Positions 15,718 through 63,522 of a DNA stretch of 64,000 bases are shown here, in pieces. The position numbers and the translations under genes were made by a program. The notes under the pieces were generated by a model that saw nothing but the letters and a program-made list of their open reading frames with translations, did not search any database and was not told the origin of the DNA. Positions within the stretch are counted from its first letter, which is position 1, and each line of letters opens with the position of its first letter. The stretch is from Candidatus Nomurabacteria bacterium (GTDB lineage Bacteria; Patescibacteriota; Minisyncoccia; Phycocordibacterales; UBA5272): contig JBEIQD010000003.1 in the NCBI GenBank assembly GCA_040376695.1, positions 1,789 to 65,788 of the forward strand, given 5' to 3'.

Positions 15718-15734
15718 TTTTTACATAAACCTAA

Positions 15735-15768
15735 AACAAAAGCACCTGATCAGGTGCTTTTGTTTTAT
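15735..15768. terminator. bidirectional intrinsic terminator (34-nt perfect palindrome) between the M23 peptidase gene and comM
   Basis: aaaacaaaagcacctgatcaggtgcttttgtttt, with A/T runs on both sides. Confidence 0.6.
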
Positions 15769-18861: not shown

Positions 18862-19125
18862 TTACTTCAAACCGAGTTTTGTAACGAGAGCAGTGTATCG
18901 CTTCTTGTTATTTGCCTCGAGATACTTCAAATGTGTGCGTCGGTCAGCAACCATCTGAATAAGTCCACGACGTGAGTGATTGTCCTTCTTGTGTGTCTTA
19001 AGGTGGTTAGTGAGTTCAACGATCTTCTTTGAAAGAAGTGATACCTGAACATCGGCAGAGCCAGTGTCTGTATCGTGAATCTGGGCGTTTTTAATGGCCG
19101 TAGCCTTTTTTCGTGCAGTAAGCAT
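18862..19125 (-). CDS. rpsO: 30S ribosomal protein S15
   Basis: 87 aa; GSADVQVSLLSKKI...LKTHKKDNHSRRGL...RR..LKYL is a canonical S15. Confidence 0.9.
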   Translation of the reverse strand: MLTARKKATAIKNAQIHDTDTGSADVQVSLLSKKIVELTNHLKTHKKDNHSRRGLIQMVADRRTHLKYLEANNKKRYTALVTKLGLK

Positions 19126-19249
19126 ATTGATTAACTATAGGATGTATTGTATCACACATTTCAAACAATTGCAAGTGCTCCCCTGTTGCGCTGCCTTATC
19201 CCCAATACTATTGTGCGACACTAGCCTCTATCTGCTATATACTCATATA

Positions 19250-20209
19250 ATGCAAAGCTTATCGAGCCTAAAAGCTGACTTCCTTCAATACATAGAGATT
19301 GAAAAGGGTCGCTCCCCTCTTACGGTAAGGAATTACGACCATTATCTCAGTCGATTCCTAGATTTCATCAAAGTTGAGTCCCCATCCGACATCACAGAAT
19401 CAATGATGCGTGAATATCGTGTATATTTGAACCGTTTACCAGCAAAACCTCCCAAAAAAGGTAGTAAAAAGAGCGTTGTTACAGAAACATTAGATAAAAA
19501 GACCCAGAATTATCACCTAATTTCACTTCGTGCGTTCCTGAAGTATATGCGTAAGCAGGGTTTCCAAGGGTATGATCCTGAACGAATAGAGCTTGCGAAG
19601 ACTTCTTCCCGAGAACTCGATCTTATTTCTGAAAAGGAATTACAGAATCTTATGGCCGCCCCAGATACTTCTACTATCTTAGGTCTTCGTGATCGAGCAA
19701 TGCTTGAGCTTTTCTTTTCAACAGGTCTTCGCGTTTCAGAGCTTTGTTCGCTTGATCGTGACACTGATTTAAAGACAGGAGAAATCTCTATTCGTGGAAA
19801 AGGTGGAAAGATACGAGTTGTGTTCGTCTCTGGCGCTGCACTACTTGCTGTAAAGAAATATATTGAAGCACGTGTTGATATTGATGAAGCAATGTTTATT
19901 GATCACTCCCCTCGCGCACATGCTCGTATTGTTCGTGAGGAGTCTATCCGCCTTACCCCTCGTTCAGTTGAAAGAGTGGTTGAGAAATATGCAATGATTG
20001 CTGGTATTGCAAAAAAGTGTACCCCCCACGTGATTCGTCACTCGTTTGCTACCGATCTTCTCTATAATGGTGCTGATCTTCGTACGGTTCAGCTGATGTT
20101 GGGACATGCTTCTATTGCCACAACACAAATTTACACGAACGTAACTAATAAATTCCTTCGTGATCAGTTTGAGAAATTCCATTCAAAACGAGATTCAAAG
20201 AAGGAGTAG
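19250..20209 (+). CDS. xerC: tyrosine site-specific recombinase XerC/XerD family
   Basis: The C-terminal catalytic region HVIRHSFATDLLYNGADLRTVQLMLGHASIATTQIYTNV holds the R-H-R-Y active-site residues. The internal start MQSLSSLKADFL at 19250 is preferred over the track start 19094, which overlaps rpsO. Confidence 0.85.
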   Translation: MQSLSSLKADFLQYIEIEKGRSPLTVRNYDHYLSRFLDFIKVESPSDITESMMREYRVYLNRLPAKPPKKGSKKSVVTETLDKKTQNYHLISLRAFLKYMRKQGFQGYDPERIELAKTSSRELDLISEKELQNLMAAPDTSTILGLRDRAMLELFFSTGLRVSELCSLDRDTDLKTGEISIRGKGGKIRVVFVSGAALLAVKKYIEARVDIDEAMFIDHSPRAHARIVREESIRLTPRSVERVVEKYAMIAGIAKKCTPHVIRHSFATDLLYNGADLRTVQLMLGHASIATTQIYTNVTNKFLRDQFEKFHSKRDSKKE

Positions 20210-22142: not shown

Positions 22143-22484
22143 CTATAAAGTATAGTCAGCAAGTATCATTCGCTCATCTTCCGCGTTGAGGTTTTGTTCG
22201 AACATTTCAACCTGTTGATCTACTGCGTAGAATGGATTAATTGCCAGCTCTCTTGTTTGAAGAGTTGGATACACTGCGAGTGCAACAAGAAACACTGATG
22301 CGAGCTGTGCGATAGCAAGCCATCTATAGGGGGATCGTATCGCGCGCCTGTCTTCTAGCTCTTTTTCTTTTATCTCTGGTATTTGATTTAAAATATATAC
22401 AAGCGTACCTTTAGACGGCGACACGGTCTCCTTATACATAGCAAGTGCTTGTTCTTCTATTGTGAGTGGTTTGTTGTTATTCAT
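22143..22484 (-). CDS. putative membrane-anchored anti-sigma factor
   Basis: The ORF overlaps the sigma-factor stop by 8 nt and has a single TM helix (WLAIAQLASVFLVALAVYP). The assignment rests on context only. Confidence 0.35.
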   Translation of the reverse strand: MNNNKPLTIEEQALAMYKETVSPSKGTLVYILNQIPEIKEKELEDRRAIRSPYRWLAIAQLASVFLVALAVYPTLQTRELAINPFYAVDQQVEMFEQNLNAEDERMILADYTL

Positions 22485-23064
22485 GGAGGTGGCGGGTGAG
22501 TGCTCGCAGTTTTGTGAGTGCTCGTTCTTTGATTTTTCGCACAGTTGCTTCTTCTTTGCGAAGAACTTCTCCAATTTCTTTATGGCTAAGTTCTCCGTAA
22601 AAGTGCATACGAATTACCTCTTCCTCATCCCCTGTTAGAGATGGGAGGAAAGAATCGATAGACTCTGAAAGAAGTTTCACATGTGTTTCTTTTACGATAT
22701 CGACATGTTCATCTGGAGTTGTTTCAAAGAGAGACTCATCAAACGGAACAGGTTTCTTCTTAACGCCTTCATTAATAAGGAGGTGTTTAGCAATAGTGAA
22801 AAGGTAAGCAAGAGGGCTTTTATCTGGTTCGTACCCAGGCAACGCCTGGAAAAACCTTAAAAAGGCCTGCTGACACACATCGTTTGCTAATTCCGTATCT
22901 CTGCAGCGTGTAAAAACGTACCTGTACAGTGGAGTAAACAGTTGGGTGTATACAACTCCAAAAGCCTCAGTATCGCCCTTTTTTGCTGAAAGTATGAGGC
23001 TTCTAAGATCTTCCGTCTCCTCCACACTATCTATAACCGGTTTGTTTGGATTCTGTGACAGCAT
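22477..23064 (-). CDS. ECF-type RNA polymerase sigma-70 family factor
   Basis: 195 aa with region 2 (LYRYVFTRCRD...DVCQQAFLRFF) and region 4 (LSHKEIGEVLRKEEATVRKIKERALTKLR). Confidence 0.8.
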   Translation of the reverse strand: MLSQNPNKPVIDSVEETEDLRSLILSAKKGDTEAFGVVYTQLFTPLYRYVFTRCRDTELANDVCQQAFLRFFQALPGYEPDKSPLAYLFTIAKHLLINEGVKKKPVPFDESLFETTPDEHVDIVKETHVKLLSESIDSFLPSLTGDEEEVIRMHFYGELSHKEIGEVLRKEEATVRKIKERALTKLRALTRHLHE

Positions 23065-30219: not shown

Positions 30220-30582
30220 TACTACGTACTCTACGCAGGTTACAGAGACATTGCAAGGATATGTAAAAGCCAATATTTATAAGGACGTTTATGCGCGAAA
30301 GAATATTAAAGACAGTTATCCACAGATATGTACTTGCATATAAAAGACAGTGGAGTATTATTAAGGACAGAGCAGTGGTACATACAAACAAGCTTCATCG
30401 CGCTTAGCGATTAACAACACTTTGTTTATAGTCAACTGCCTCTGATCTTTCCCATAGCGGTCCTCATTAATCACATTTCGTGAACCGCGCTCAATAAACA
30501 GTTTCTGAAAAACCCTTAAGTTTCTGCTCTTTTTATCAGCTTTTGGTCTTAGATATTCCATGTAGCTATAACTCTTTTTTAG

Positions 30583-30641
30583 AATCCCCTGCATTGTGTG
30601 CACGAACTCCTTTCGCGCCTACAATGCAGGGGATTTTTTAT
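30583..30641 (+). terminator. long stem-loop (15-bp stem, about 23-nt loop) plus T6: plus-strand intrinsic terminator with no annotated plus-strand gene upstream
   Basis: aatcccctgcattgt...acaatgcaggggatt followed by ttttttattg. Confidence 0.5.
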
Positions 30642-30675
30642 TGTCTAATAGCATGTCTTTTATTAAAGACAATAG

Positions 30676-33920: not shown

Positions 33921-34193
33921 ATGAACAAAGCAGGACTCGTTGAAGCAGTAAATGCTGTGCTTGGAACTACAAAGGTTCAGGCAGAAGAAGTGGTAGACAC
34001 TGTGTTTAACACAATCGTTAAGACTCTTACAAAGGGCGACGAAGTAGCTATTGCAGGTGTTGGTAAGTTCACAGTAAAGCTCCGCAAGGCGCGTGATGCT
34101 CGTAACCCAAAGACAGGTGAAACTGTTAAGGTTCCAGCAACAAAGGTTCCAAAGTTCTCAGCAGCTAAGGCTCTTAAGGACGCAGTTAAGTAA
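33921..34193 (+). CDS. hup: DNA-binding protein HU
   Basis: 90 aa; MNKAGLVEAV...GFGKF...RNPKTGE arm motif. Confidence 0.85.
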   Translation: MNKAGLVEAVNAVLGTTKVQAEEVVDTVFNTIVKTLTKGDEVAIAGVGKFTVKLRKARDARNPKTGETVKVPATKVPKFSAAKALKDAVK

Positions 34194-34202
34194 TTAACTT
34201 TC

Positions 34203-34250
34203 GTAAAGAATACAAAAACCCGCCAATTGGCGGGTTTTTGTATTCTTTAC
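34203..34250. terminator. 48-bp perfect palindrome forming a bidirectional terminator between hup and the convergent gene
   Basis: gtaaagaatacaaaaacccgccaa | ttggcgggtttttgtattctttac. Confidence 0.7.
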
Positions 34251-35317: not shown

Positions 35318-35323
35318 CTATAA

Positions 35324-35357
35324 ACAACAAATCCGCCACGTGGCGGATTTGTTGTTT
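35324..35357. terminator. hairpin terminator after tRNA-Pro, convergent with the YraN-like gene
   Basis: aacaacaaatccgccacgtggcggatttgttgtt. Confidence 0.6.
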
Positions 35358-35368
35358 TAGTATAAAGC

Positions 35369-35770
35369 TTACTCTTTTAGTATATTTTCCATAAATACCA
35401 CTCTCCCCTCCCTTATTTCAGGATTAATATACACACAAGCTAAATCCATTTGCCAAGGTGTTCCACGTGTAACGTCTGTATGGCGTAGGTAGACTTCAAC
35501 ACTTATGACAAGTTTATTCCATTTATCTTGAGTTAGGTTATCTTCTGGTTGTACAGCTAGATTCTCCAGGTTGTTGAAATCTCTGACTTTTACACTTTTA
35601 ACTTCAATGAATCTTAGTTTGTTGTCCTTTTTCGCAATAATATCTATTTCACCAAACTTAGTACGATAGTTTGTGCCAACAACGGTAAAACCATGTTTCA
35701 TGAGAAACGTTTTTGTTATATTTTCACCTATTCTTCCAATTTCGTTATGTTCAGCCATGTTTGTAATCAT
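35369..35770 (-). CDS. YraN/UPF0102 family endonuclease-like protein
   Basis: GE.DIIA...LRFIEVK motif (GEIDIIAKKDNKLRFIEVKSVK). Confidence 0.65.
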   Translation of the reverse strand: MITNMAEHNEIGRIGENITKTFLMKHGFTVVGTNYRTKFGEIDIIAKKDNKLRFIEVKSVKVRDFNNLENLAVQPEDNLTQDKWNKLVISVEVYLRHTDVTRGTPWQMDLACVYINPEIREGRVVFMENILKE

Positions 35771-35937
35771 TTCATGAGAAACGATTATTTTGTTTCACGT
35801 GAAACGTTTGTCCTTCTTATTCCACTTTGCCTTTAATAAAAAGGGCAAAGACCTTTTAAAAAGATATATAAATCAATGCTTTTTTACAATTAAAGCCAGT
35901 ATTTGTACAATCTGCCCTCTACGTACTTTACTGTCTT

Positions 35938-35967
35938 TTATCCACTGTTCCCACAGGTTTATCCACA
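35938..35967 (+). promoter_or_regulatory. tandem DnaA-box-like cluster (TTATCCACT, TTCCCACAG, TTATCCACA) spaced about one helical turn apart
   Basis: Read directly: cttttatccactgttcccacaggtttatccacagtt. An AT-rich stretch, ttttaaaaagatatataaatcaatgcttttttacaattaaag, lies immediately upstream (35860-35900). Confidence 0.3.
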
Positions 35968-36088
35968 GTTTTGAACTTTAGAAGGGGTTTCATGTGGAAC
36001 AGTCAGCAAGAGAAACGTGGCTTGTTTCCCCTTGATAGAAGAGGGGATTATGCTAGAATGGTGTTACTAAATAAACAGATTTAGTGTT

Positions 36089-36159
36089 GCGGTGTTGGTT
36101 TAGTGGTAGAACACGACCTTGCCAAGGTTGAGACAGGAGTTCGATTCTCCTACGCCGCA
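36089..36159 (+). tRNA. tRNA-Gly (anticodon GCC), no encoded CCA
   Basis: Acceptor GCGGTGT/ACGCCGC, anticodon stem CGACC/GGTTG with loop TTGCCAA, T-arm GGAGTTCGATTCTCC. Confidence 0.8.
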
Positions 36160-36240
36160 CAGATTAGTCCTATTTTTCAAATAGAGACCACATGTAGAAA
36201 TATATTCTTCGTTACACGAGAAACGTTTAGTCACTTTTTG

Positions 36241-36312
36241 TGCTTCCACCAGGATTCGAACCTGGAACGACGGTTCCGAAGACCGTTGTGATATCCATTT
36301 CACCATGGAAGC
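36241..36312 (-). tRNA. tRNA-Arg (anticodon UCG), no encoded CCA
   Basis: Reverse complement gives acceptor GCTTCCA/TGGAAGC, D-arm GTGA..TCAC, anticodon stem ACGGT/ACCGT with loop CTTCGGA, T-arm CCAGGTTCGAATCCTGG. Confidence 0.75.
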
Positions 36313-36342
36313 TTGATTTATAAAGAAATTCTAACACATTCT

Positions 36343-37848
36343 ATGCTACAAATACAGCTGGATAAGGAAATACAGATACCAAAAGAAGTAAAAATGGTTT
36401 TAGCTGTTTTACAAGCCGCTTCACATGAAGCTTTTCTTGTCGGGGGTTGTGTTCGGGATCTTTTCATGGGAACTATTCCAAAAGACTACGATATTACGAC
36501 AAATGCTACCCCAGAGCAGATTATTGCTTTATTTCCAAAGACTTTTTACGAAAACACCTATGGGACAGTAGGTGTTGTTACGTGTGGGGAAGAGCTGGGT
36601 ATTCCTTGCATTGATGAAACGATAAAGGTTATCGAGGTAACCCCATATCGCCTAGAAGGGGAATATTCAGATAATCGCCATCCAGATGAGGTTAAGTGGA
36701 GTAAAAACATTGAAGATGATTTGAAACGCCGCGATTTCACATGTAACGCTATTGCTTATAACCCAATGACAGGCGAAGTGATTGATCCACATCATGGACA
36801 AGAAGATATCACCAATAGGATTATTCGAGCAGTAGGGGCGCCCGATGCTCGTTTCCAAGAGGATGCATTGCGGCTTATGCGTGCAATTCGCTTTGTTTCT
36901 CAGCTTGATTTTGATATTGATGGCGTTACACGTGAAAGCATTGAGAAAAATGCAGGCCTTCTTAAGAATGTTTCACGTGAAAGAGTGAGAGAGGAATTTG
37001 TAAAGCTTATTATGACCAACTTCCCAATGCGAGGAATCATCATGATGAAAGAAACAGGGCTTTTACAGGATGTTATCCCAGAACTTGAGCGTGGAATAGG
37101 GGTGGAACAGAATCAGGCACATAGTTACGACGTTTGGGAGCACAATTTGCGCACGTTACAGCATGCAGCAGATAAGAACTGGCCTTTACACGTACGTCTT
37201 TCTGCAATATTCCATGATATTTCAAAGCCAGAAACAAGGCGTTTCTCAAAAGAGAGTAAACAGTATACGTTTTACGGTCATGATGTGGTTGGTGGACGCG
37301 TTACACGTGAAATAATGGAAAGATTGAAGTTTCCAAAGGATATGATTGAGAAAGTCTCAATGTTTGTTCGTTGGCATATGTTTTTCTCAGACACTGAACA
37401 AATAACGCTTTCCGCTGTGCGAAGATTGATCACCAATGTTGGGAAGGATAATATCTGGGATCTTATTGATCTTAGAATCTGTGATCGTGTAGGAACAGGA
37501 CGTCCAAAGGAAGAGCCTTATAGATTAAGGATGTATCAGTCCCTTGTGGAACAGGCACTTAAAGATCCGATCTCACTTAAAATGCTAAAAACAGACGGGA
37601 AACGTATTATGGACGTTACACAAGAAACGCCGGGACCGAAAATAGGGTACGTTTTACACGCTTTGTTTGATGAAGTGCTAGAAGATCCTTTGAAAAACAC
37701 AGAGGAATATCTTGATGCAAAAGCAAAAGAACTGATGACACTCACAGTTACAGAGCTTAAAGCTTTAGGGGAAGCTGGGAAGGAGGGGATGGAACAGAAA
37801 AACGAGGAACAAGTGAAGGAAATCAGGAAACAATTCAAGGTAAAGTAG
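36343..37848 (+). CDS. cca: CCA-adding tRNA nucleotidyltransferase with HD domain
   Basis: Head domain FLVGGCVRDLFMG...DYDITT, RFVSQLDF and a C-terminal HD motif (HDISKP). The start is ambiguous: 36313, 36343 or 36394. Sits directly next to four tRNA genes that lack encoded CCA. Confidence 0.8.
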   Translation: MLQIQLDKEIQIPKEVKMVLAVLQAASHEAFLVGGCVRDLFMGTIPKDYDITTNATPEQIIALFPKTFYENTYGTVGVVTCGEELGIPCIDETIKVIEVTPYRLEGEYSDNRHPDEVKWSKNIEDDLKRRDFTCNAIAYNPMTGEVIDPHHGQEDITNRIIRAVGAPDARFQEDALRLMRAIRFVSQLDFDIDGVTRESIEKNAGLLKNVSRERVREEFVKLIMTNFPMRGIIMMKETGLLQDVIPELERGIGVEQNQAHSYDVWEHNLRTLQHAADKNWPLHVRLSAIFHDISKPETRRFSKESKQYTFYGHDVVGGRVTREIMERLKFPKDMIEKVSMFVRWHMFFSDTEQITLSAVRRLITNVGKDNIWDLIDLRICDRVGTGRPKEEPYRLRMYQSLVEQALKDPISLKMLKTDGKRIMDVTQETPGPKIGYVLHALFDEVLEDPLKNTEEYLDAKAKELMTLTVTELKALGEAGKEGMEQKNEEQVKEIRKQFKVK

Positions 37849-37870
37849 TAAAAGACATTACGCTGTATAG

Positions 37871-37910
37871 AGATATACATTTGTCCTTTATAAAGGACAA
37901 ATGTATATCT
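37871..37910. repeat. 40-bp perfect palindrome (20-bp arms, no spacer) in the cca-recJ intergenic region, overlapping the first in-frame ATG of recJ
   Basis: agatatacatttgtccttta | taaaggacaaatgtatatct. Confidence 0.7.
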
Positions 37911-37924
37911 GGTATACTCGAGCT

Positions 37925-39655
37925 ATGAATATCTCCCTGGATGAGCTCCATCCGCTTACTCTTACGCTCCTTAAAAAAAGGGGAATAGAGGAATCAAACA
38001 TGATGGATTTTCTGAATCCTTCGTACGAGAAACATGTTGGCGACCCATTTCAGATATATGGAATACCTAAGGCTGTAGAAAGAATACTGCTCGCACTTCA
38101 CAGAAAAGAGAAGATTGCGATTTACAGTGATTATGATTGTGATGGGATTCCGGGCGGTGTGCTTCTACGTGAATTCTTTGATGGGATTGGGTACCCAGTA
38201 GATATTTACGTGCCGCATCGTCATAACGAAGGATATGGAGTGCACAACCATGCAATCGATCTTCTTAAGGAGAAAGGTATCAGTCTGATCATTACGGTTG
38301 ACTTAGCTATTACTAATATTGAGGAGATTGCGTACGCTAAGTCTGTTGGTGTTGATTTCATTGTGACTGATCACCATTTACCTATACACATGGAGGGGAA
38401 AGGGCAGGTGGTGCCTGATGCTGTTGCTGTTATTAATTCAAAACAAGATCTTTGTACCTATGATGATGATATGTTGTGTGGGTGTGCTGTGGCCTGGAAA
38501 CTTGCCTGCGCGGTGCTTTCTCAGCTGCGAATAGAGTCAGTGAATGATGAGGTGTATCAAAAAGTACAGACACTTCCGCTTGGTTGGGAAAAATGGATGC
38601 TTGATTTGGTTGGTATTTCAACAATTGCTGATATGGTACCGCTTCAGAAAGAAAATAGAGCACTTGCTCACTATGGTTTGAGGGTTCTTCAGAAAACAAA
38701 ACGTCCGGGGTTGTTGCACATATTTAATGAGCAGCGCATGAAAAAAGAGAATCTTACGGAAGAAGATATTGCTTTTACTATTGCACCAAGGATTAATGCA
38801 GCAGGGAGAATGGGTTCACCAATTCAGGCACATCATATGTTGTATGAGAAAGATGTAGTAAAGGCAGAGAATTTTGCGCGCGATTTGGAACTTTTAAATA
38901 TTGAACGAAAAGCAGGAGTAAAGGATATTACTGAAGGTATCGACTTTAATAGTTTACGTCCAAGACGCGAATCTGCTGATTCGAATAACGTTGTGGTAGT
39001 GGGGGATATGAGCTGGGGACCAGGAATCCTTGGACTTATTGCTCAGAAGATAATTGATGAAACGGGAAAACCGACGTTTGTGTGGGGGCAAGGGGACGAT
39101 AAGACAACTGTGAAAGGATCATGTCGCTCAAAAGGGGATGTGCATGTTGTGGAATTGATGGCGAGAGTTCAAGAACTTTTTCCTGGAGTTATTACGCATT
39201 CTGGTGGACATGAACAAGCGGGAGGCTTTTCATGTGCTGTTGATAGAATTAGTGAACTTTCAGAAGCATTAAATGAGTCATATAAACATGTTGAGCTACA
39301 AGAGCTCGGTAACCAAGAGATTCTTATTGATGCAGAGCTTGGTATGGATGATATTCACGAAGTAACGTATCGCGCTATTTCACCCCTTGCGCCATTTGGT
39401 GTTGGAAATCCAAAGCCTGTGTTTAGTTTCAAAGACGTTACACCATTATCAGTGCGAAGATTTGGAAAGAAGAGTGAACATTTAGAAGTTGTCTATCCGC
39501 GAACTAAAGGGGGGCAGGTAAAATCCATTAAGTTTTTTGTAGATAAAGATATGGAAACAAAAGCTACACAGCCACACACACTTTTAGCTCACATGGAAAA
39601 AAGTTATTTTGCAGGGAAGACGGAACTACGACTGAGAATCGTTGATATCAGGTAG
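37925..39655 (+). CDS. recJ: single-stranded-DNA-specific exonuclease RecJ
   Basis: DHH motifs (DYDCDGI, ITVDLA, VTDHH) and DHHA1 (GGHEQAGG). The start at 37925 (MNISLDEL) is preferred over 37901, which lies inside the palindrome. Confidence 0.85.
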   Translation: MNISLDELHPLTLTLLKKRGIEESNMMDFLNPSYEKHVGDPFQIYGIPKAVERILLALHRKEKIAIYSDYDCDGIPGGVLLREFFDGIGYPVDIYVPHRHNEGYGVHNHAIDLLKEKGISLIITVDLAITNIEEIAYAKSVGVDFIVTDHHLPIHMEGKGQVVPDAVAVINSKQDLCTYDDDMLCGCAVAWKLACAVLSQLRIESVNDEVYQKVQTLPLGWEKWMLDLVGISTIADMVPLQKENRALAHYGLRVLQKTKRPGLLHIFNEQRMKKENLTEEDIAFTIAPRINAAGRMGSPIQAHHMLYEKDVVKAENFARDLELLNIERKAGVKDITEGIDFNSLRPRRESADSNNVVVVGDMSWGPGILGLIAQKIIDETGKPTFVWGQGDDKTTVKGSCRSKGDVHVVELMARVQELFPGVITHSGGHEQAGGFSCAVDRISELSEALNESYKHVELQELGNQEILIDAELGMDDIHEVTYRAISPLAPFGVGNPKPVFSFKDVTPLSVRRFGKKSEHLEVVYPRTKGGQVKSIKFFVDKDMETKATQPHTLLAHMEKSYFAGKTELRLRIVDIR

Positions 39656-39670
39656 TGGTATACTTTCCCT

Positions 39671-40186
39671 ATGAAATTAAGTATCTATACGGACGGATCA
39701 AGTCGCGGGAACCCAGGTCCTGGTGGTTGGGCGGCAATTATTATTACGGAAGCAGAGGTGATTGAGTTGGGAGGGTTTGAGGATCACACAACTAACAATC
39801 GCATGGAGCTTATGGGGGCCATTAAGGGTCTGCGAGAAATTGGGCCACATATGCATGTTGAATCAGTAGAAATATTTACTGATAGTCAATATGTGAAGAA
39901 AGGGATGAGTGAATGGATTACTGGGTGGATTGCTAAGGGATGGAAAACTTCAACGAAGAAACCAGTGCTCAATCAAGATCTATGGGAAGAACTTCACGCA
40001 GAAGAGAAGCGATTAAAAAATGCAGGAGTCGCGATTGTATGGACATACGTTCGTGCTCATGTGGGTGTTCCTCTGAACGAACGAGCAGACGTGATCGCTA
40101 CATCATGCGCTGATTCAGTCATAGAAAAAGGCGCAACTAATTTGCAACTATACAGAGGGAGAAAAGGTGACTATTCTTATTTCTAG
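39671..40186 (+). CDS. rnhA: ribonuclease HI
   Basis: IYTDGSSRGNPGPGGWAAII, TNNRMEL, TDSQYV catalytic DEDD residues. Confidence 0.85.
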   Translation: MKLSIYTDGSSRGNPGPGGWAAIIITEAEVIELGGFEDHTTNNRMELMGAIKGLREIGPHMHVESVEIFTDSQYVKKGMSEWITGWIAKGWKTSTKKPVLNQDLWEELHAEEKRLKNAGVAIVWTYVRAHVGVPLNERADVIATSCADSVIEKGATNLQLYRGRKGDYSYF

Positions 40187-40201: not shown

Positions 40202-41722
40202 ATGCACCTAAAAACAATTATTTTTGTACTAGGGGTTGCCGCAGGAATTACTATTGGATTTGTTTCTTCGTTTGCGACTGAAATGATAGTTGCAGTACTA
40301 GTGCTCGCTGCAGTTCAGACAAGTATAGTGTTCGTGAGTAAATATTGGAGAAGAGAGTCGCATGTCAAAGACATGCGACTCTCTTTGTTTACAATATTGT
40401 TCTGTGTTGGAGTTGTGCTTGGCGCTGTACGTACGCAATTTGTTGAAGAAAAAATTCCATACGCATGTGAGTCATCATGTGTCTTTGACGCAACAATTAT
40501 TTCATTCCCTGAAACAAAAGATGCCTATCAAGTTTTTACTGTGCGACCAGTTGAAGCGGAACGCGTAACATATGATGTACAAATTCGTGCACCGCTCTAT
40601 CCACGTTTCAAAATAGGGGAGACAGTGAGTGTCCAAGGTAAATCACTTTTGCCAAGTGTGATTATGCCACATAACGGAGAAAAAAGTTTTGATTATATTT
40701 CGTATCTTCATACAAAAAATATTGGAAGCGAGATGATGTTTCCAAGTATAGAAGTAGTGGATAGTGAAGCTCACTCGGTGCAAGAATATTTAGGAAGATG
40801 GAAAGAAGATTTAATTATGCGATTAGGTTTGTACGTTTCTTCCCCAGCGTCTGCACTTTCAAGCGGAATGCTCTTTGGAGATTCTTCTATGTCGAAAGAA
40901 CTTATTCAAACATTTCGCACCTCAGGACTTTCACACATTGTTGTTCTCTCTGGTTTTAACATTGCAATTGTTATCACGTCCATTTTATTTGTGTTCATGT
41001 TTTTGCCACTTGTTATGCGTATTGCACTCGCTTCATTTTTTGTCATTATGTTTGTGATGATGGTAGGAGGGGAGGCAAGTGTGATGAGAGCAACTGCGAT
41101 GGCGTTCATCGGATTACTTGCGACACTTCTTGGTCGAGCGTATGTTGCGCGCCAAGCACTCATCATTTCTTTCCTTGCAATCATTCTGTACGAACCACAA
41201 GCACTACGTGCGGATGCCTCTCTTCATCTTTCATTTCTCGCAACCGCAGGAATTGTCTATGCGAGTGCTCCACTAGAAAAGATTCTACAAAAGTATATGA
41301 AGAATAAATATATGCTTTCACTTTTCACAACAACTCTCGCTGCGTATTTCGCCACACTCCCGTATGTCATGTATACATTTGGAACAGTCTCACTGTATGC
41401 GCTCATTGCAAACGTACTCGTACTTCCACTGATTCCAATCACCATGCTATTGTCTTTTATAGTTGTTTGCATGTCCTATATGTCTGAAACTTTGTCGCTT
41501 GGTTTTGGGTTCGTGGATACTCTAGTGAGTAACATAATTCTTTTTGTTGCACGTATTGTGGAAGCCTTACCCTTTTCAAGTAGTAGTTTTTCTATCTCAT
41601 TCACAGGTATGTGTGTCATGTATCTAGGCGTTTCATTACTTGTTATATATCTACATAACAAAAAGAATGAAACGATTGAAACAACAACGGAGGGATATCT
41701 TACAGATATAATTAAATACTAA
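40202..41722 (+). CDS. comEC: ComEC/Rec2 DNA-uptake channel, N-terminal and Competence-domain part (no lactamase domain)
   Basis: 506 aa, polytopic; the SGLSHIVVLSGFNIAIV Competence-domain signature; ends before any MBL domain. Confidence 0.7.
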   Translation: MHLKTIIFVLGVAAGITIGFVSSFATEMIVAVLVLAAVQTSIVFVSKYWRRESHVKDMRLSLFTILFCVGVVLGAVRTQFVEEKIPYACESSCVFDATIISFPETKDAYQVFTVRPVEAERVTYDVQIRAPLYPRFKIGETVSVQGKSLLPSVIMPHNGEKSFDYISYLHTKNIGSEMMFPSIEVVDSEAHSVQEYLGRWKEDLIMRLGLYVSSPASALSSGMLFGDSSMSKELIQTFRTSGLSHIVVLSGFNIAIVITSILFVFMFLPLVMRIALASFFVIMFVMMVGGEASVMRATAMAFIGLLATLLGRAYVARQALIISFLAIILYEPQALRADASLHLSFLATAGIVYASAPLEKILQKYMKNKYMLSLFTTTLAAYFATLPYVMYTFGTVSLYALIANVLVLPLIPITMLLSFIVVCMSYMSETLSLGFGFVDTLVSNIILFVARIVEALPFSSSSFSISFTGMCVMYLGVSLLVIYLHNKKNETIETTTEGYLTDIIKY

Positions 41723-43774: not shown

Positions 43775-43915
43775 ATGGCTGAAAAAGAAAAGATTCCCCA
43801 TGGCAAGGAGCACTTGCTCCAAAGATTCATTCCCAATCTTTCAGAAAAGGATCAAGAAAGGAAACTAAAAGCAGCAGCTCAAAAACGATCAGTCGAAAGA
43901 GAAAGGGAGAAATAG
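43775..43915 (+). CDS. small basic protein (46 aa), candidate unannotated sORF
   Basis: A strong SD GAGGAAAG sits 6 nt upstream of the ATG; the ORF MAEKEKIPHGKEHLLQRFIPNLSEKDQERKLKAAAQKRSVEREREK ends directly at a perfect terminator hairpin. It is below the ORF-track size cutoff. Confidence 0.3.
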   Translation: MAEKEKIPHGKEHLLQRFIPNLSEKDQERKLKAAAQKRSVEREREK

Positions 43916-43946
43916 AAAAGCGCGACCAATTGGTCGCGCTTTTGAA
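43916..43946. terminator. bidirectional terminator between the sORF and rpmB
   Basis: aaaagcgcgacc-aa-ttggtcgcgctttt. Confidence 0.7.
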
Positions 43947-43982
43947 TTAGTAAATTCACGGCTTGGCCGTAAATAAATCAGG

Positions 43983-44964: not shown

Positions 44965-45040
44965 ATATATGAAAGTTGTCCACAGTTAAGGACATTCATT
45001 GTCTTTTATATATGTCCTTTTAACGTATACTGAATGGACG

Positions 45041-45547
45041 ATGAAATCTTCTGTAAAAGTTAACCAACGCCCAACCTCTCGCGCAACCGTAAAAAGCGCT
45101 CCTAAGAAAAGCGTTTCATCACGCGTAGTCAGAAAAAATACAAGCTCTCTTTCTCGAATTGGATATGCCACCAAGCGTTACGGGAAACAAACTCTTCGAG
45201 ATATATTACTTTCAAAAACATTTCACAGCTCGTTTAAAGTATTAGTGGGTCTTCTTATCTCTGGGTCGGCGCTCTACGGTGCGTATGCCTTCATTGGAAA
45301 CAGTATCGCTAACGATGTCGTTGTTTCAAAGTCTGAAATCTTAGCACGAGTTGCAAAACACACCCCATTACCGGAAGGTGAACCAGAAGCTGTTGTGCGT
45401 GTGCAGGATCCAGAGTCACTCAAGAAACAGAATAATCTCTATGAAAACGTAAAAGAGGGAGATTATATAGTGATTTACCCGACTCTTGCTGTGGTGTACG
45501 ATCTTAGAAATGATCATATTGTTGCGCTGAAAAGCACACATAGGTAA
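45041..45547 (+). CDS. hypothetical membrane-anchored protein
   Basis: The internal start MKSSVKVNQ is preferred; it has one TM helix (VLVGLLISGSALYGAYAFI). Confidence 0.4.
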   Translation: MKSSVKVNQRPTSRATVKSAPKKSVSSRVVRKNTSSLSRIGYATKRYGKQTLRDILLSKTFHSSFKVLVGLLISGSALYGAYAFIGNSIANDVVVSKSEILARVAKHTPLPEGEPEAVVRVQDPESLKKQNNLYENVKEGDYIVIYPTLAVVYDLRNDHIVALKSTHR

Positions 45548-57055: not shown

Positions 57056-57169
57056 TTGTATCCCCATTTTATCCTTTCTTCATAGGCACTATTCTCGTAT
57101 ACTGAACGTATGCTTTCGGGTCATTTTTCCATGTTTTATAAACTCTTTTCTTTACACAAGAGGGCGGTA

Positions 57170-60100
57170 ATGATCTCTCTCTGTGCGGTAGTACTTTTCT
57201 CCCCAACCCTCACGTTCGCAGCCAACCCAGCCTCTCCATTTTCTCCATCAGATAACGTAGTGGACCCAAACTGTTTACCAACAGATTCTAACTGTTATGT
57301 GTCGATGACAAGTATGACCTTTGTTAACGCAACTTCTACACGACTGTTTGCAACGAATGCATCTTCAACAAACTTTTTCTCTACACTCATAAATGCAGTA
57401 ACTGCACTCTTCACTAACCTCACTACAACAGGAACAACAACTCTTGCTACAACTGGCGGAAGGGTGGGAGTTGGAACAACTACACCGAACCATACACTTG
57501 ATGTCCAGGGAAATATTGGTCTTGCTTCTTCAGGCTACATTAACTTTGGTTCAGTAGACAGTACATCAGGATACGGATTCCGCGACAATGCTGGTGCAAT
57601 TGAATACAAGAACTCAAACGGAGGCTGGACATCATTCGCCTCAGCTGGTGCAGGAGGAGGACAGCTCCTTGCTGTGTACTCAACCTCAACTGTAGGAACA
57701 AACATTACCGTTAACTTCAATGGTTCTGCTAACTCTTCACCGTCATACTCAGGAGGTGTTCTTACGCTCCCCTCAAACGCATCTCACATCGTTGTTGAAA
57801 CATGGGGAGCGGGTGGTGGAGGAGGAGGGTCAAACGGCGGCGCAACAGGAGGGACTGGAGGGGCTAGTTGTTTCGGAACGAACGCAACAGCTTGTACGAG
57901 TCCTATTATAAGCGCAACAGGAGGGACTGGAGGAACCTCTCAAGGGGGAGGAAGTGTTGCTGGAACAGGAACAGGGGGTGATATTAATCTAACTGGTGGG
58001 ACGAGTGCAGGGCTCACAACTGTTGGAGGTGGTTCAATTAATTACTCTGCAGGAGGAGCAGGAGGATCTGCTCCTCTTGGAGGGGGTGGGGGAGGAAGTA
58101 CTTACACCTCATCTGGAGCAACAGGGGCAAGATACGGTGGAGGTGGAGGGGGAGGGGGAATCTATGGAAGTACCAGCTCTTGTACTGCAGGAGGGGGTGG
58201 TGCAGGAGGAGGATACGCAAGAAAGTTGGTCACTAATCCATCAGGAACATATTATTACACCATTGGTGCTGGTGGAGCTGGAACTGTTGCGGGAAGCGCG
58301 TGTGGAGTGGGAAGTCAATATGGCGGAGGCGATGGTGGCTCAGGAGGAATCACTATCTCCATCTATACCTCAGGAGTATCTAATGGTTCTATTGGAAGTG
58401 GTCTCACAGGGTACATTCCGTACTACGGTTCTACAGGAACTAACCTTTCTGCTACTTCTTCAATCTTTCTTTCAACAACAGGGAATGTCGGTATTGGAAC
58501 AAGTACACCACTTTCAAAACTCTCAGTACAAGGAGACTTTTTCTTAGAAGGGTCTAATAGATATTTAAATTTCGGAAACGCAACAGGAACTCCGGGATAC
58601 GGATTCCGTGACAACGCAGGGGTACTAGAATTCAAAAATGCTTCTGGCTCTTGGACAAGCTTTTCAACTTCCACAGCTTTAGGTTCTGCTGGCCCTTCTT
58701 TTTCTGTTAATAAAGGGGGAACCAGTCAAACAGTTCCAGGAGGGAACACTACTTTACTCACATGGTCAACAGAAGTGTTTGATACCAACAATAATTTTGC
58801 TTCAAACAGGTTTACTCCAACAGTTGCAGGTAAGTATATTTTTAATCTGAATGTGCGTTGTAATGGAACAGGATGTTACGCGCATATTTACCAAAACGGG
58901 ATTCAGGTGTCGCAAACAGGTACAGGAACTGGAGGTTCTGATACGGAAATAGTAAGTACTTCCATTCTTCTTGATATGAATGGCACCACTGATTACGTAG
59001 AAGCTTATGGATATAATACCTCAACCACTATTAGTGGAAATGCATCTCAAACCTTCTTCACTGGCGCACTCATTGCTCCAGTAAATGCCACGGCAGGTGG
59101 TTGGCAAAATGATAGTACTTCATCGTTCCTGGCTGACTCCACTGATTTTGTTGGAATTGGAACTTCTAGTCCTACAGCTAAACTATCAATCCAAGGAACA
59201 GCAGGCTTCAATCCATTCATGGTTGCTTCTTCAACAGGAGCTTCACTCTTCTCGATTCTTCAGAACGGTAATATTGGAATTGGAACAAGTACACCATCGT
59301 CTAAATTAGATATTTGGGGCAATCTTACAGTAGGTACTTCATCTACTCCATTAATTTTTGCAAATACAGCAACAGGAAATGTGGGGATTGGAACAGCGAA
59401 CCCTGAATATAAACTAACTGTTGTTGCTCCAGCATCAAATTGGGGTATTGCTATAAATCCAGACAATCCAAGTAGCGGAAAACAGTACGGTTTGTTGGCT
59501 CGTGGGACATTGTATTCCGGGTACTTTAACGGCCCAGGTTTTATAGATCAAAGTGCTTGGACATACGGCTCGGACCGTCGCCTGAAGGAAAATATTTCAT
59601 ATTTTGAAAATGGACTAGATACTATTATGCGTCTTAAGCCTGCTGCGTATGACTACATATCAGGAACGAAAAGTAACCTCGGATTCATTGCTCAGGATGT
59701 ACAGGAAGTTATCCCAGAAGCTGTAACAATAACTGATCCAACAACAGGAATGCTTGGACTTAAAACTGATTTTATTATTCCATATCTTGTTAATGCAGTT
59801 CAGAATATGAATTCCGTCTTTAACGCAAGTAATGCGTTAAATGCTTCTTCAACTATCTTCTCGTATTATCAGGGAACAACTACTCCTGCAATCACTGTGG
59901 GGGCTACAGGTAATGTCGCTATCGCAACAAGTTCATCCCCGTATACTTTAACTGTTGGTAACTCTCTTATCAGTGGTGTTATCGCTCGCTTCCAAAATGC
60001 TACAGGGTACTGTGATATCAATCCAACAACAACATCACTTACCTGTTCTTCAGACGAGCGACTTAAGAAAAATATCCTCTCACTTGACGCAACATCTACG

Positions 60101-60622
60101 TTCGACAAGTTCATCCAACTTAATCCCGTAACATATAACTGGATTGGAGAAACGTCTACTTCTTCAACCTCAACTCATGCAGGTTTCATAGCTCAACAAG
60201 TAGAAACTCTGTTCCCAGATCTTGTTGCAACGGACGAACAGGGAATGAAGTCTGTTTCATACACTGGGTTTATTCCGTATATTGTTGAATCTATAAAGAG
60301 TCTTGCTAGAGATGTGAAGGCTCTTACCTTAAAAGTTGCATCATTTGCGAATCTAGTAGAAACAGATAAAGTTAAAAGTAAAAGTATTTGTCTTGAAAAC
60401 AATGGAGCGGAGACATGTATTAGTAAAGAAAAACTAGATGCTATTCTCCTCCTTTTAGGAGAAACAGCTGCAAATCAAGATCAAAACATCACACCTCCAG
60501 ACACATCAACCACTACGCCAGATATTGCAACTTCAACCGATCCAGTAGCGTCTTCAACTCCAGAAATAACACCCACCGAAGAAATTGAAGGGGGCACTAA
60601 CTCAGAAACAGAAACAAACTAA
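57170..60622 (+). CDS. giant secreted phage-tail-fibre-like protein with repeat modules, a glycine-rich tract and two tandem peptidase-S74 (intramolecular chaperone, CIMCD) domains
   Basis: SD gaggg 5 nt before the ATG at 57170, then signal peptide MISLCAVVLFSPTLTFA. Repeated about 60-aa modules (GVGTTTPNHTLDVQGN...GYGFRDNAGAIEYKNSNGGWTSF, twice) and several GIGTSTP..KL.V.G fibre repeats. Gly-rich region at 57800-58350. Two S74-like domains: GSDRRLKENISYFENG...GFIAQDVQEVIPEAV (59570-59815) and SSDERLKKNILSLDA...GFIAQQVETLFPDLV (60050-60300). Thr/Pro/Glu-rich tail. Confidence 0.7.
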   Translation: MISLCAVVLFSPTLTFAANPASPFSPSDNVVDPNCLPTDSNCYVSMTSMTFVNATSTRLFATNASSTNFFSTLINAVTALFTNLTTTGTTTLATTGGRVGVGTTTPNHTLDVQGNIGLASSGYINFGSVDSTSGYGFRDNAGAIEYKNSNGGWTSFASAGAGGGQLLAVYSTSTVGTNITVNFNGSANSSPSYSGGVLTLPSNASHIVVETWGAGGGGGGSNGGATGGTGGASCFGTNATACTSPIISATGGTGGTSQGGGSVAGTGTGGDINLTGGTSAGLTTVGGGSINYSAGGAGGSAPLGGGGGGSTYTSSGATGARYGGGGGGGGIYGSTSSCTAGGGGAGGGYARKLVTNPSGTYYYTIGAGGAGTVAGSACGVGSQYGGGDGGSGGITISIYTSGVSNGSIGSGLTGYIPYYGSTGTNLSATSSIFLSTTGNVGIGTSTPLSKLSVQGDFFLEGSNRYLNFGNATGTPGYGFRDNAGVLEFKNASGSWTSFSTSTALGSAGPSFSVNKGGTSQTVPGGNTTLLTWSTEVFDTNNNFASNRFTPTVAGKYIFNLNVRCNGTGCYAHIYQNGIQVSQTGTGTGGSDTEIVSTSILLDMNGTTDYVEAYGYNTSTTISGNASQTFFTGALIAPVNATAGGWQNDSTSSFLADSTDFVGIGTSSPTAKLSIQGTAGFNPFMVASSTGASLFSILQNGNIGIGTSTPSSKLDIWGNLTVGTSSTPLIFANTATGNVGIGTANPEYKLTVVAPASNWGIAINPDNPSSGKQYGLLARGTLYSGYFNGPGFIDQSAWTYGSDRRLKENISYFENGLDTIMRLKPAAYDYISGTKSNLGFIAQDVQEVIPEAVTITDPTTGMLGLKTDFIIPYLVNAVQNMNSVFNASNALNASSTIFSYYQGTTTPAITVGATGNVAIATSSSPYTLTVGNSLISGVIARFQNATGYCDINPTTTSLTCSSDERLKKNILSLDATSTFDKFIQLNPVTYNWIGETSTSSTSTHAGFIAQQVETLFPDLVATDEQGMKSVSYTGFIPYIVESIKSLARDVKALTLKVASFANLVETDKVKSKSICLENNGAETCISKEKLDAILLLLGETAANQDQNITPPDTSTTTPDIATSTDPVASSTPEITPTEEIEGGTNSETETN

Positions 60623-63468: not shown

Positions 63469-63482
63469 TTGATACAGCAAAA

Positions 63483-63512
63483 TAAAAGCCGCACATATGT
63501 GCGGCTTTTATT
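63483..63512. terminator. bidirectional terminator
   Basis: aaaagccgcacatatgtgcggctttt flanked by A/T runs. Confidence 0.65.
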
Positions 63513-63522
63513 TTGTTTATGA

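Follow-up and report, generated by a model that had tools for sequence, protein, structure and literature searches.

A palindrome with a conserved 20-bp core at the 3' end of cca in a Nomurabacteria contig, and its reading as an operator

A perfect 40-bp palindrome lies between the genes cca and recJ on contig JBEIQD010000003.1 of a Candidatus Nomurabacteria bacterium, and the core of this palindrome is conserved in relatives. The DNA analysed, called the window here, is a stretch of 64,000 nucleotides of that contig, and coordinates are counted from its first letter. The palindrome is genuine: an inverted-repeat scan of the window recovered AGATATACATTTGTCCTTTA|TAAAGGACAAATGTATATCT as a gap-free perfect inverted repeat at 37871-37910, assigned to neither strand, and Pfam searches identified the genes on its two sides as cca and recJ. 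Both the repeat and its placement had been reported by a model working from the letters alone (the sequence-only reading). We lean towards the interpretation that the core is an operator for a sequence-specific DNA-binding protein, termed X below. Of the three functions which the sequence-only reading had offered, a binding site for a dimeric regulator fits best, given that the core is conserved, that its half-site recurs, and that boxes are kept while the spacers between them vary; binding by a protein would account for these observations.

The conserved core and its attachment to the 3' end of cca

The conserved part of the palindrome is limited to the inner 18-22 bp. The 20-bp core TTGTCCTTTATAAAGGACAA (37881-37900, neither strand) consists of two head-to-head half-sites, TGTCCTTTA and TAAAGGACA, and is exact in six relatives, L002, L007, L047, L097, L122 and L151 (the numbers L001-L153 denote the related or metagenome loci that were compared with the window). 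The inner 18 bp are kept in L149, and L003, L006 and L150 have degenerate cores. The outer 10 bp of each arm differ by lineage. They are the same in L007, are replaced in L097 by a different 10-bp extension that is likewise perfect and again gives a 40-bp palindrome, are symmetrically shorter in L151 (a 32-bp palindrome, each arm 2 nt shorter than in the window), and are almost nil in L002, while L078 and L089 have 50-bp palindromes with compensatory changes. Conservation in relatives, which the sequence-only reading had named as a check, holds for the core and fails for the outer arms.

RecJ homologues place the organism in the Patescibacteria (candidate phyla radiation, CPR), labelled Paceibacterota or Nomurabacteria, and the nearest relative found is L007, with a RecJ identity of 96%. 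The cca-recJ spacer falls within a 111-nt run of full identity between the window and L007; this is weak evidence of purifying selection, since the adjacent 128 nt of recJ are also nearly identical. The 20-nt arm has a single site in the 64 kb when up to three mismatches are allowed, and dinucleotide shuffles gave 0 such matches. A dispersed repeat (repetitive extragenic palindrome, miniature inverted-repeat transposable element or insertion sequence end) and a CRISPR (clustered regularly interspaced short palindromic repeats) repeat were rejected on this ground.

A metagenome scan for the exact 20-mer returned at least 120 stretches, and no matches to the core were found in viral contigs. The raw match count is inflated by one coding coincidence: in the low-GC contigs L032, L059, L068, L080, L087 and L145 the 20-mer lies inside an apparent dnaA N-terminal coding region, identified by its N-terminal motif and not by a domain search, and encodes CLSFIKDN (TGT TTG TCC TTT ATA AAG GAC AAT). 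Among the matches listed, a cca homologue with 50-81% identity adjoins the exact 20-mer at about 20 metagenome loci.

In the window, cca encodes a CCA-adding enzyme (36313-37848, + strand; Pfam PolyA_pol, PolyA_pol_RNAbd and HD). A third half-site, box A (TAAAAGACA, 37849-37857, + strand), stands right at its stop codon; the left half-site of the core is 24 nt downstream. Of the 13 close relatives, 12 have such a third half-site at or overlapping the cca stop codon, 16 or 23-25 nt ahead of the inverted box. The gene on the other side of the palindrome is less constant. A ddl gene sits between palindrome and recJ in L151, L001, L008, L009 and L097, with a CxxCxxCC gene in addition in L151, and a different ORF separates the two in L149. 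Judged from gene order, the conserved neighbour of the palindrome is the 3' end of cca and not recJ, and the presence of ddl or other genes between palindrome and recJ in relatives means that the cca-palindrome-recJ order of the window, L007, L002 and L003 looks derived. In the window, ddl is missing from between cca and recJ by comparison with the 614-kb relative (L151, 1150-1660, carried on the complete genome JAKFZB010000001.1, 614,594 bp, GCA_021733405.1) and with L001, L008, L009 and L097, as is the CxxCxxCC gene of L151 from the cca-recJ spacer (37849-37924); no D-Ala-D-Ala ligase was seen among the window open reading frames (ORFs) scanned.

The start of recJ (37925-39655, + strand; Pfam DHH, DHHA1 and RecJ_OB) had to be corrected. 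The sequence-only reading had the palindrome covering the first ATG of recJ, but ATG 37901 is merely the first ATG of the mechanically called ORF; in relatives the N-terminus aligns from ATG 37925, and the annotated start should be moved there. An extended -10 element, TGGTATACT (37910-37918, + strand), ends 6 nt before ATG 37925. Nine relatives were examined, and most have the motif TGnTATACT 6-9 nt before the equivalent RecJ ATG; L005 is the one exception (GTATACT alone, 17 nt before the ATG). Because the start follows a conserved extended -10 element at this distance, the recJ mRNA is probably leaderless or nearly so. The promoter has no -35 element; the palindrome lies upstream of the -10, over the -35 position, with 13 nt from the end of the right half-site to the extended -10 and its centre at about -34.5 from the inferred recJ start. 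A pattern scan of 37600-38100 called no canonical sigma-70 promoter at the palindrome.

The spacing of box, 13 nt and TATACT is common to loci with recJ downstream (the window, L002 and L003) and with ddl downstream (L001 and L009). From this shared spacing the promoter downstream of cca appears orthologous between the recJ-driving and the ddl-driving loci. The link of the palindrome to recJ is thus recent and partial. The target set of recJ, rnhA and comEC proposed in the sequence-only reading is accordingly right only in part: rnhA (39671-40186; comEC at 40202-41722; both by Pfam) has the (TGn)TATACT-N6-10-ATG layout ahead of it and therefore its own leaderless promoter, and the palindrome is tied to the end of cca rather than to recJ.

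The half-site as a recurring box beside DnaA boxes and parS-like sites

The 7-mer AAGGACA, which had been described as a recurring motif, is not enriched in the window (10 found against 10.05 expected), and neither is the 13-mer core TAAAGGACAAATG at up to two mismatches (4 found against 3.3 expected). The sites listed for it are present, with TTAAGGACAG at 30361, TTAAGGACAT...ATGTCCTTTTAA at 44986-45023 and ATAAGGACG at about 30280, and what does recur is the 9-mer TWAARGACA. It has 14 matches in the window, nine of them in the intergenic DNA that makes up 9.3% of it. Shuffled intergenic sequence gave a mean of 0.38, and nine matches were reached in 0 of 2000 shuffles. The intergenic matches fall into four clusters, all between 30 and 45 kb, one of which is the cca flank.

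The second cluster (44976-45031, + strand) reads DnaA box TTGTCCACA, GTT, AAGGACA, N5, TGTCTTT, N6, TGTCCTT, N6, TATACT. Its boxes at 44986-45021 precede a leaderless ORF at 45041, the first of the rpsL region (the M50/hyp promoter). The third, upstream of rsmE (30306-30369, - strand), reads TGTCCTT, N13, TGTCTTT, N19, the DnaA box TGTGGATAA, c, TGTCTTT, and is conserved in L151, L152 and L153. Also upstream of rsmE, at 30654-30671 (neither strand), is a second, weaker palindrome of like design, TGTCTTTTA|TTAAAGACA (that is, TGTCTTTTATTAAAGACA), in whose place L152 has TGTCTTTTATAAGAGACA. Further boxes lie upstream of tRNA-Gly (35809-35940, neither strand), where TGTCCTT follows 2 nt past a parS-like site and TGTCTTTTA overlaps a DnaA-like box; this region is conserved in L150. 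DnaA boxes stand directly against a box in three of the four clusters, the junctions being TTAAAGACA-G-TTATCCACA at 30306, TTGTCCACA-GTT-AAGGACA at 44976 and TGTCTTTTATCCAC at 35932; the DnaA box at 30316 matches perfectly.

Relatives whose proteins are 57-85% identical keep the boxes. In L148-L150 the M50/hyp promoter retains the boxes and their spacing (..TGTCYTT, N6, TATACT), the spacer sequences vary, and the DnaA box varies solely at known degenerate positions. Upstream of rsmE the boxes and the DnaA box are unchanged in L151-L153 and the spacers again vary. In intergenic DNA the half-site occurs singly, as a direct repeat and inverted, with different spacers; in L053 the boxes TGTCCTTTACA and TGTCCTTTAGA are in 11-bp phase. 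An invariant sequence with variable orientation and spacing in diverged surroundings is what a protein-binding box typically shows. Further out among the relatives, a DnaA box and the promoter TGTCC[TTTACA]-N8-TAAAGGACA-[TAGAAT] come after the palindrome.

That promoter of the distant relatives, with its boxes and DnaA box, gives rise to a noncoding transcript of about 400-500 nt that is conserved and has no Rfam match (L066 4175-4618, L074 7278-7776, L078 3207-3700 and L089 2224-2721, both on the - strand, and also L099, L107 and L123). The transcript starts GGYCCAGARAGGGCGRGC, contains the motifs ACCUCCAA and ACGUUCAUAAC, and has a covarying terminator stem. In the window, 30370-30640 holds about 260 nt without a credible ORF, bounded on one side by the boxes upstream of rsmE and on the other by a strong hairpin that carries a T-run (30583-30640, + strand). 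L151-L153 keep the stretch, their hairpins showing compensatory changes; it has no Rfam match and may be a small RNA of a new type. Rfam scans of the window, of 30 related loci and of the two candidate noncoding regions returned tRNAs only. RNase P RNA, signal recognition particle RNA and transfer-messenger RNA (tmRNA) were rejected as identities, with no Rfam support for either region and no tmRNA found in the window by ARAGORN.

Eight parS-like sites are clustered at 35459-37314 (neither strand; consensus TGTTTCACGTGAAACA, up to three mismatches), as context to the palindrome and not part of it. In the window, 18 strand matches were found against 2.99 expected, and 18 were reached in 0 of 100 shuffles. 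The cluster spans a UPF0102 gene, a tRNA-rich spacer and the cca coding region, with three sites inside cca, and is probably a ParB loading zone or centromere of this CPR chromosome. Because the cluster adjoins the palindrome, and because GC skew and gene orientation invert within the window, the palindrome would lie near the origin, in the part of the chromosome where ParB is loaded. It does not match TGTTNCACGTGAAACA at up to three mismatches and so is not itself a parS site, and as a DnaA box (TTWTNCACA) it fails as well, TAAAGGACA differing from TTATCCACA at positions 2, 4 and 6.

The operator reading and its alternatives

If the core is an operator, a dimer of X would bind the two head-to-head half-sites of 9-10 bp (TTGTCCTTTA / TAAAGGACAA). 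Bound X, centred at about -34.5, would overlap the footprint of RNA polymerase at the recJ promoter and would repress it by occlusion or, less likely, stand in for the -35 element that this promoter lacks. A third protomer might bind at box A, or box A might permit looping. Since the half-site is found at a few other promoters near the parS-like cluster, mostly beside DnaA boxes, X looks like an origin-proximal regulator with a small regulon rather than a regulator specific to recJ. The outer 10 bp of each arm would not be needed for recognition and probably derive from a tendency of the genome to perfect and extend inverted repeats. In favour of an operator, the core is conserved as sequence and not merely as pairing, while its flanks and even the neighbouring genes differ.

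Several observations weigh against this. The position and orientation of the boxes relative to the -10 vary between promoters. In L097, L151, L149 and L047 the next promoter is 41-95 nt from the palindrome, which still adjoins cca, so the palindrome is not always within a promoter; a role tied to the end of cca, as a roadblock or as a hairpin at the transcript 3' end, is therefore conceivable. Among the matches listed, the flanks of the core are palindromic by at least 3 bp in 26 of the 129 distinct sites, against about 2-3 expected, and these flank sequences differ among lineages with compensatory or symmetric changes (2 nt lost per arm in L151). Such an excess suggests that the flanks pair or form a cruciform, neither of which a plain operator needs. 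A candidate binding protein was also not found in the window or beside the boxes. Small ORFs beside boxes have no DNA-binding domains; the extracytoplasmic function (ECF) sigma factor at 22477-23064 was set aside because no fixed -35/-10 geometry follows the boxes; an OmpR-type regulator was met only in L021 among the loci examined, without boxes upstream; and the TrmB-like proteins of L148 have no counterpart in the window. Of the TrmB helix-turn-helix (HTH) family, L148 has three genes, L152 and L153 have a single gene each, between HU and RNase Y, and the window has none.

The chief alternative is a nucleic-acid hairpin, formed as an 18-bp stem in the cca transcript (where it would stabilise the RNA, cause pausing or help to form the 3' end), in the 5' end of an RNA started by a weak promoter at box A, or as a cruciform in supercoiled DNA. 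We regard this as unlikely, although several features fit it. The palindrome folds very stably as RNA (-31.3 kcal/mol, z = -6.1), as the transcript of an intrinsic terminator would, and as DNA (-16.7 kcal/mol, z = -9.3), the close clade has no canonical terminator after cca, and the outer arms vary yet stay complementary (40 bp in the window and L097, 50 bp in L078 and L089, symmetric loss in L151). By eye, a TAnnnT hexamer can be read after box A in 11 of the 13 relatives, and this would place a transcript start at the palindrome's foot. However, the core is invariant rather than covarying, and at other promoters the 7-9-mers stand single, in both orientations, beside DnaA boxes, where a hairpin is impossible. 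About half of the distinct 20-mer sites, among the matches listed, have no palindromic extension, and in distant relatives the palindrome lies past a real cca terminator or about 1 kb off. Nor does the palindrome look like a terminator. An intrinsic terminator has a G+C-rich stem with a 3-8-nt loop and then a run of T. Here the stem is followed by GGTATACTCG on the + strand and by CTATACAGCG on the - strand, with no T-run (U-run in RNA) on either, and the pattern scan of 37600-38100 called no terminator at the palindrome. In more distant relatives a separate canonical terminator stands between cca and the palindrome. The bidirectional terminator-attenuator of the sequence-only reading is thus poorly supported.

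Nor is the length of the palindrome far beyond that of a normal terminator, as had been claimed. A 48-bp perfect palindrome at 34203-34250 and several of 36-38 bp in the window are ordinary bidirectional terminators. These (34203-34250 and 63478-63515, for example) resemble the palindrome in being long, perfect and intergenic with no unpaired central spacer; unlike it, they are built as A-run, GC-rich stem and T-run, whereas the palindrome has the reverse layout of T-run, GTCC, AT-rich centre, GGAC and A-run, with few G-C pairs in the stem and no T-run after it. Among the inverted repeats listed for the window, terminator palindromes with 0 nt between the arms were found at 34203-34250, 63478-63515, 15732-15767, 35322-35357 and 43911-43948, with arms of up to 24 nt that reach beyond the A/T runs; if loops were 4 nt long, chance would make about 1 in 16 palindromic throughout. 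Template switching, or some process like it, may thus be perfecting and extending inverted repeats. It is very unlikely that the 40-bp palindrome is itself only a by-product of such intrastrand switching, with no specific function. These five repeats, palindromic through the loop, would speak for it, and it would explain the outer arms but not the core, in which an identical 20-mer is kept across relatives whose cca proteins are 50-80% identical; the half-site, moreover, recurs at conserved positions elsewhere.

A site for a chromosome or replication factor near the origin, acting with or against DnaA in the way of CtrA, MtrA, Spo0A or HP1021 at their own origins, or organising ParB/parS, with the palindrome as a high-affinity site and any effect on recJ secondary, is quite unlikely in our estimate. 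The boxes abut or overlap DnaA boxes at conserved spacing, one lies 2 nt from a parS-like site with eight such sites within 1.9 kb around and inside cca, and all intergenic boxes lie at 30-45 kb of a window in which gene orientation and GC skew invert. Against this, true DnaA boxes adjoin other boxes and none is beside the palindrome, and neither a dnaA gene nor a clear origin was identified within the 64-kb window. The restriction to one region may be a sampling effect of the 64-kb scope, and the promoter-like box positions are also explained by an ordinary transcription factor. Least probable of all, and close to dismissal, is a dif-like or lox-like target of the Xer-type tyrosine recombinase encoded 18 kb away at 19094-20209. 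The inverted arms of the palindrome around an 8-bp AT-rich centre, TTTATAAA, do resemble recombinase sites, but a spacer that is symmetric cannot confer directionality, single copies of the half-site recur at promoters, and to our knowledge the palindrome shows no similarity to known dif consensus sequences. The recombination site suggested in the sequence-only reading is also at odds with the location, which adjoins the parS-like cluster and, by gene orientation and GC skew, looks origin-proximal and not terminus-like.

Returning to an operator for X, known regulatory systems offer partial likenesses. The SOS box of LexA, CTGT-N8-ACAG (PMC8565304), is likewise a dyad some 20 bp long whose outer half-sites are conserved around an AT-rich centre, and it too lies over the -35 of a DNA-repair gene promoter. 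The palindrome is unrelated in sequence to the LexA motifs of that study, and in relatives it follows cca rather than recJ. None of the dyads CTGT-N8-ACAG, GGA-N5-TCC and CTAA-N5-TTAG (PMC8565304) occurs in 37849-37924, and lexA and recA lie outside the window. The GAAC-N4-GTTC dyad, another LexA motif, is likewise absent from 37849-37924. We know of no other LexA motif to which the palindrome is related; no match to it was found in the LexA literature, and when the literature was searched for sequence strings, unrelated primer sequences were all that came up.

Pho box units consist of CTGTCAT with an AT-rich tail, and the half-site resembles them. Within the same OmpR/PhoB family, the E. coli CusR box is AAAATGACAAnnTTGTCATTTT (PMC11195947), and the half-site found here, TTGTC(C/T)TTT(A), resembles the CusR half-site TTGTCATTTT in having a TGTC core and an AT-rich tail. 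The half-sites of the palindrome point the opposite way from those of the CusR box. The boxes described here likewise occur as inverted repeats and as direct repeats in 11-bp phase (L053), and they sit at the -35 position of promoters that lack a -35 element. This is a resemblance only: no response-regulator gene was found near any box, and the sole one among the loci (in L021) has no boxes upstream. CtrA, MtrA, Spo0A (0A-box TGTCGAA) and HP1021 are origin-binding regulators whose sites are interleaved with DnaA boxes. The 9-mer boxes similarly adjoin or overlap DnaA boxes near parS-like sites, and the box opens TTTGTC like the Spo0A box; the palindrome differs in having no DnaA box, and in lying in a window in which no origin was identified, and the four proteins are absent from this lineage or not known in it.

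An operator with the same sequence is suggested by termite-gut Alphaproteobacteria, in which the identical 20-mer forms TTGTCC-N17-TATAAT in the promoter of a gene for a dnstrm_HI1420 HTH protein. By this precedent TTGTCCTTTATAAAGGACAA can plausibly serve as an HTH operator. As in the window, the 20-mer is directly upstream of the -10 box, at a distance of 3 nt there against 13 nt in the window. The dnstrm_HI1420 HTH family has 39 members in 5.8 billion proteins, and every organism-named member is alphaproteobacterial or proteobacterial; as a candidate for X it was rejected, tblastn giving no homologue in the window or in the CPR loci searched. The 20-mer occurs several times per contig in L041, L061, L082, L088, L119, L131 and L146 (termite-gut Alphaproteobacteria or Rickettsiales-like), and one such copy precedes the dnstrm_HI1420 HTH gene, of 101 aa. 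This set is probably an autoregulated small regulon unrelated to that of the CPR.

A broader proposal, which we put forward as speculative and unlikely, is that the TGTCCTTTA box marks the regulon of a new regulator widespread in Paceibacteria (CPR), which would work alongside DnaA near parS and the origin and couple replication or cell-cycle state to a few leaderless genes. These would be ddl or recJ, rsmE, the head gene of the S12 operon and the noncoding RNA of about 400-500 nt, with the cca-flank palindrome as the strongest site. Very little is known of transcriptional control in Patescibacteria, which have tiny genomes and few recognisable regulators. The present comparison defines a concrete cis-element, a 20-bp core with 9-mer boxes placed relative to leaderless TGnTATACT promoters, DnaA boxes and a parS-like cluster, which can be used as bait or as a profiling query to reach its regulator. 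If that regulator works with DnaA, it would give an entry into cell-cycle control of organisms not yet grown alone. Should the palindrome be an ordinary repressor site, there is still a correction to be made, in that it is neither a recJ-specific switch nor a terminator.

Leaderless starts and other features of the window

The prevailing layout of gene starts in the window seems to be an extended -10 promoter from which a leaderless transcript is made. At least 20 genes start 6-10 nt past (TGn)TATACT or TACACT, with neither a Shine-Dalgarno sequence nor a -35 element, among them those at 1814, 2273, 8318, 14444, 17321, 17953, 19250, 20627, 22116, 24973, 34657, 37925, 39671, 44344, 45041 and 57110.

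The start of cca is probably further downstream than 36313, the TTG that opens its ORF, which is abutted by a tRNA-Arg gene (- strand, 36240-36313 region) ending at 36312. Elsewhere the window encodes a PrgI-family protein of a type IV secretion-like system (1851-2294, - strand), the Xer-like tyrosine recombinase (19094-20209, + strand), the ECF-type sigma factor (22477-23064, - strand), an HU-type DNA-binding protein (33921-34193, + strand) and a 1170-aa protein with C1q and Peptidase_S74 domains (57110-60622, + strand).

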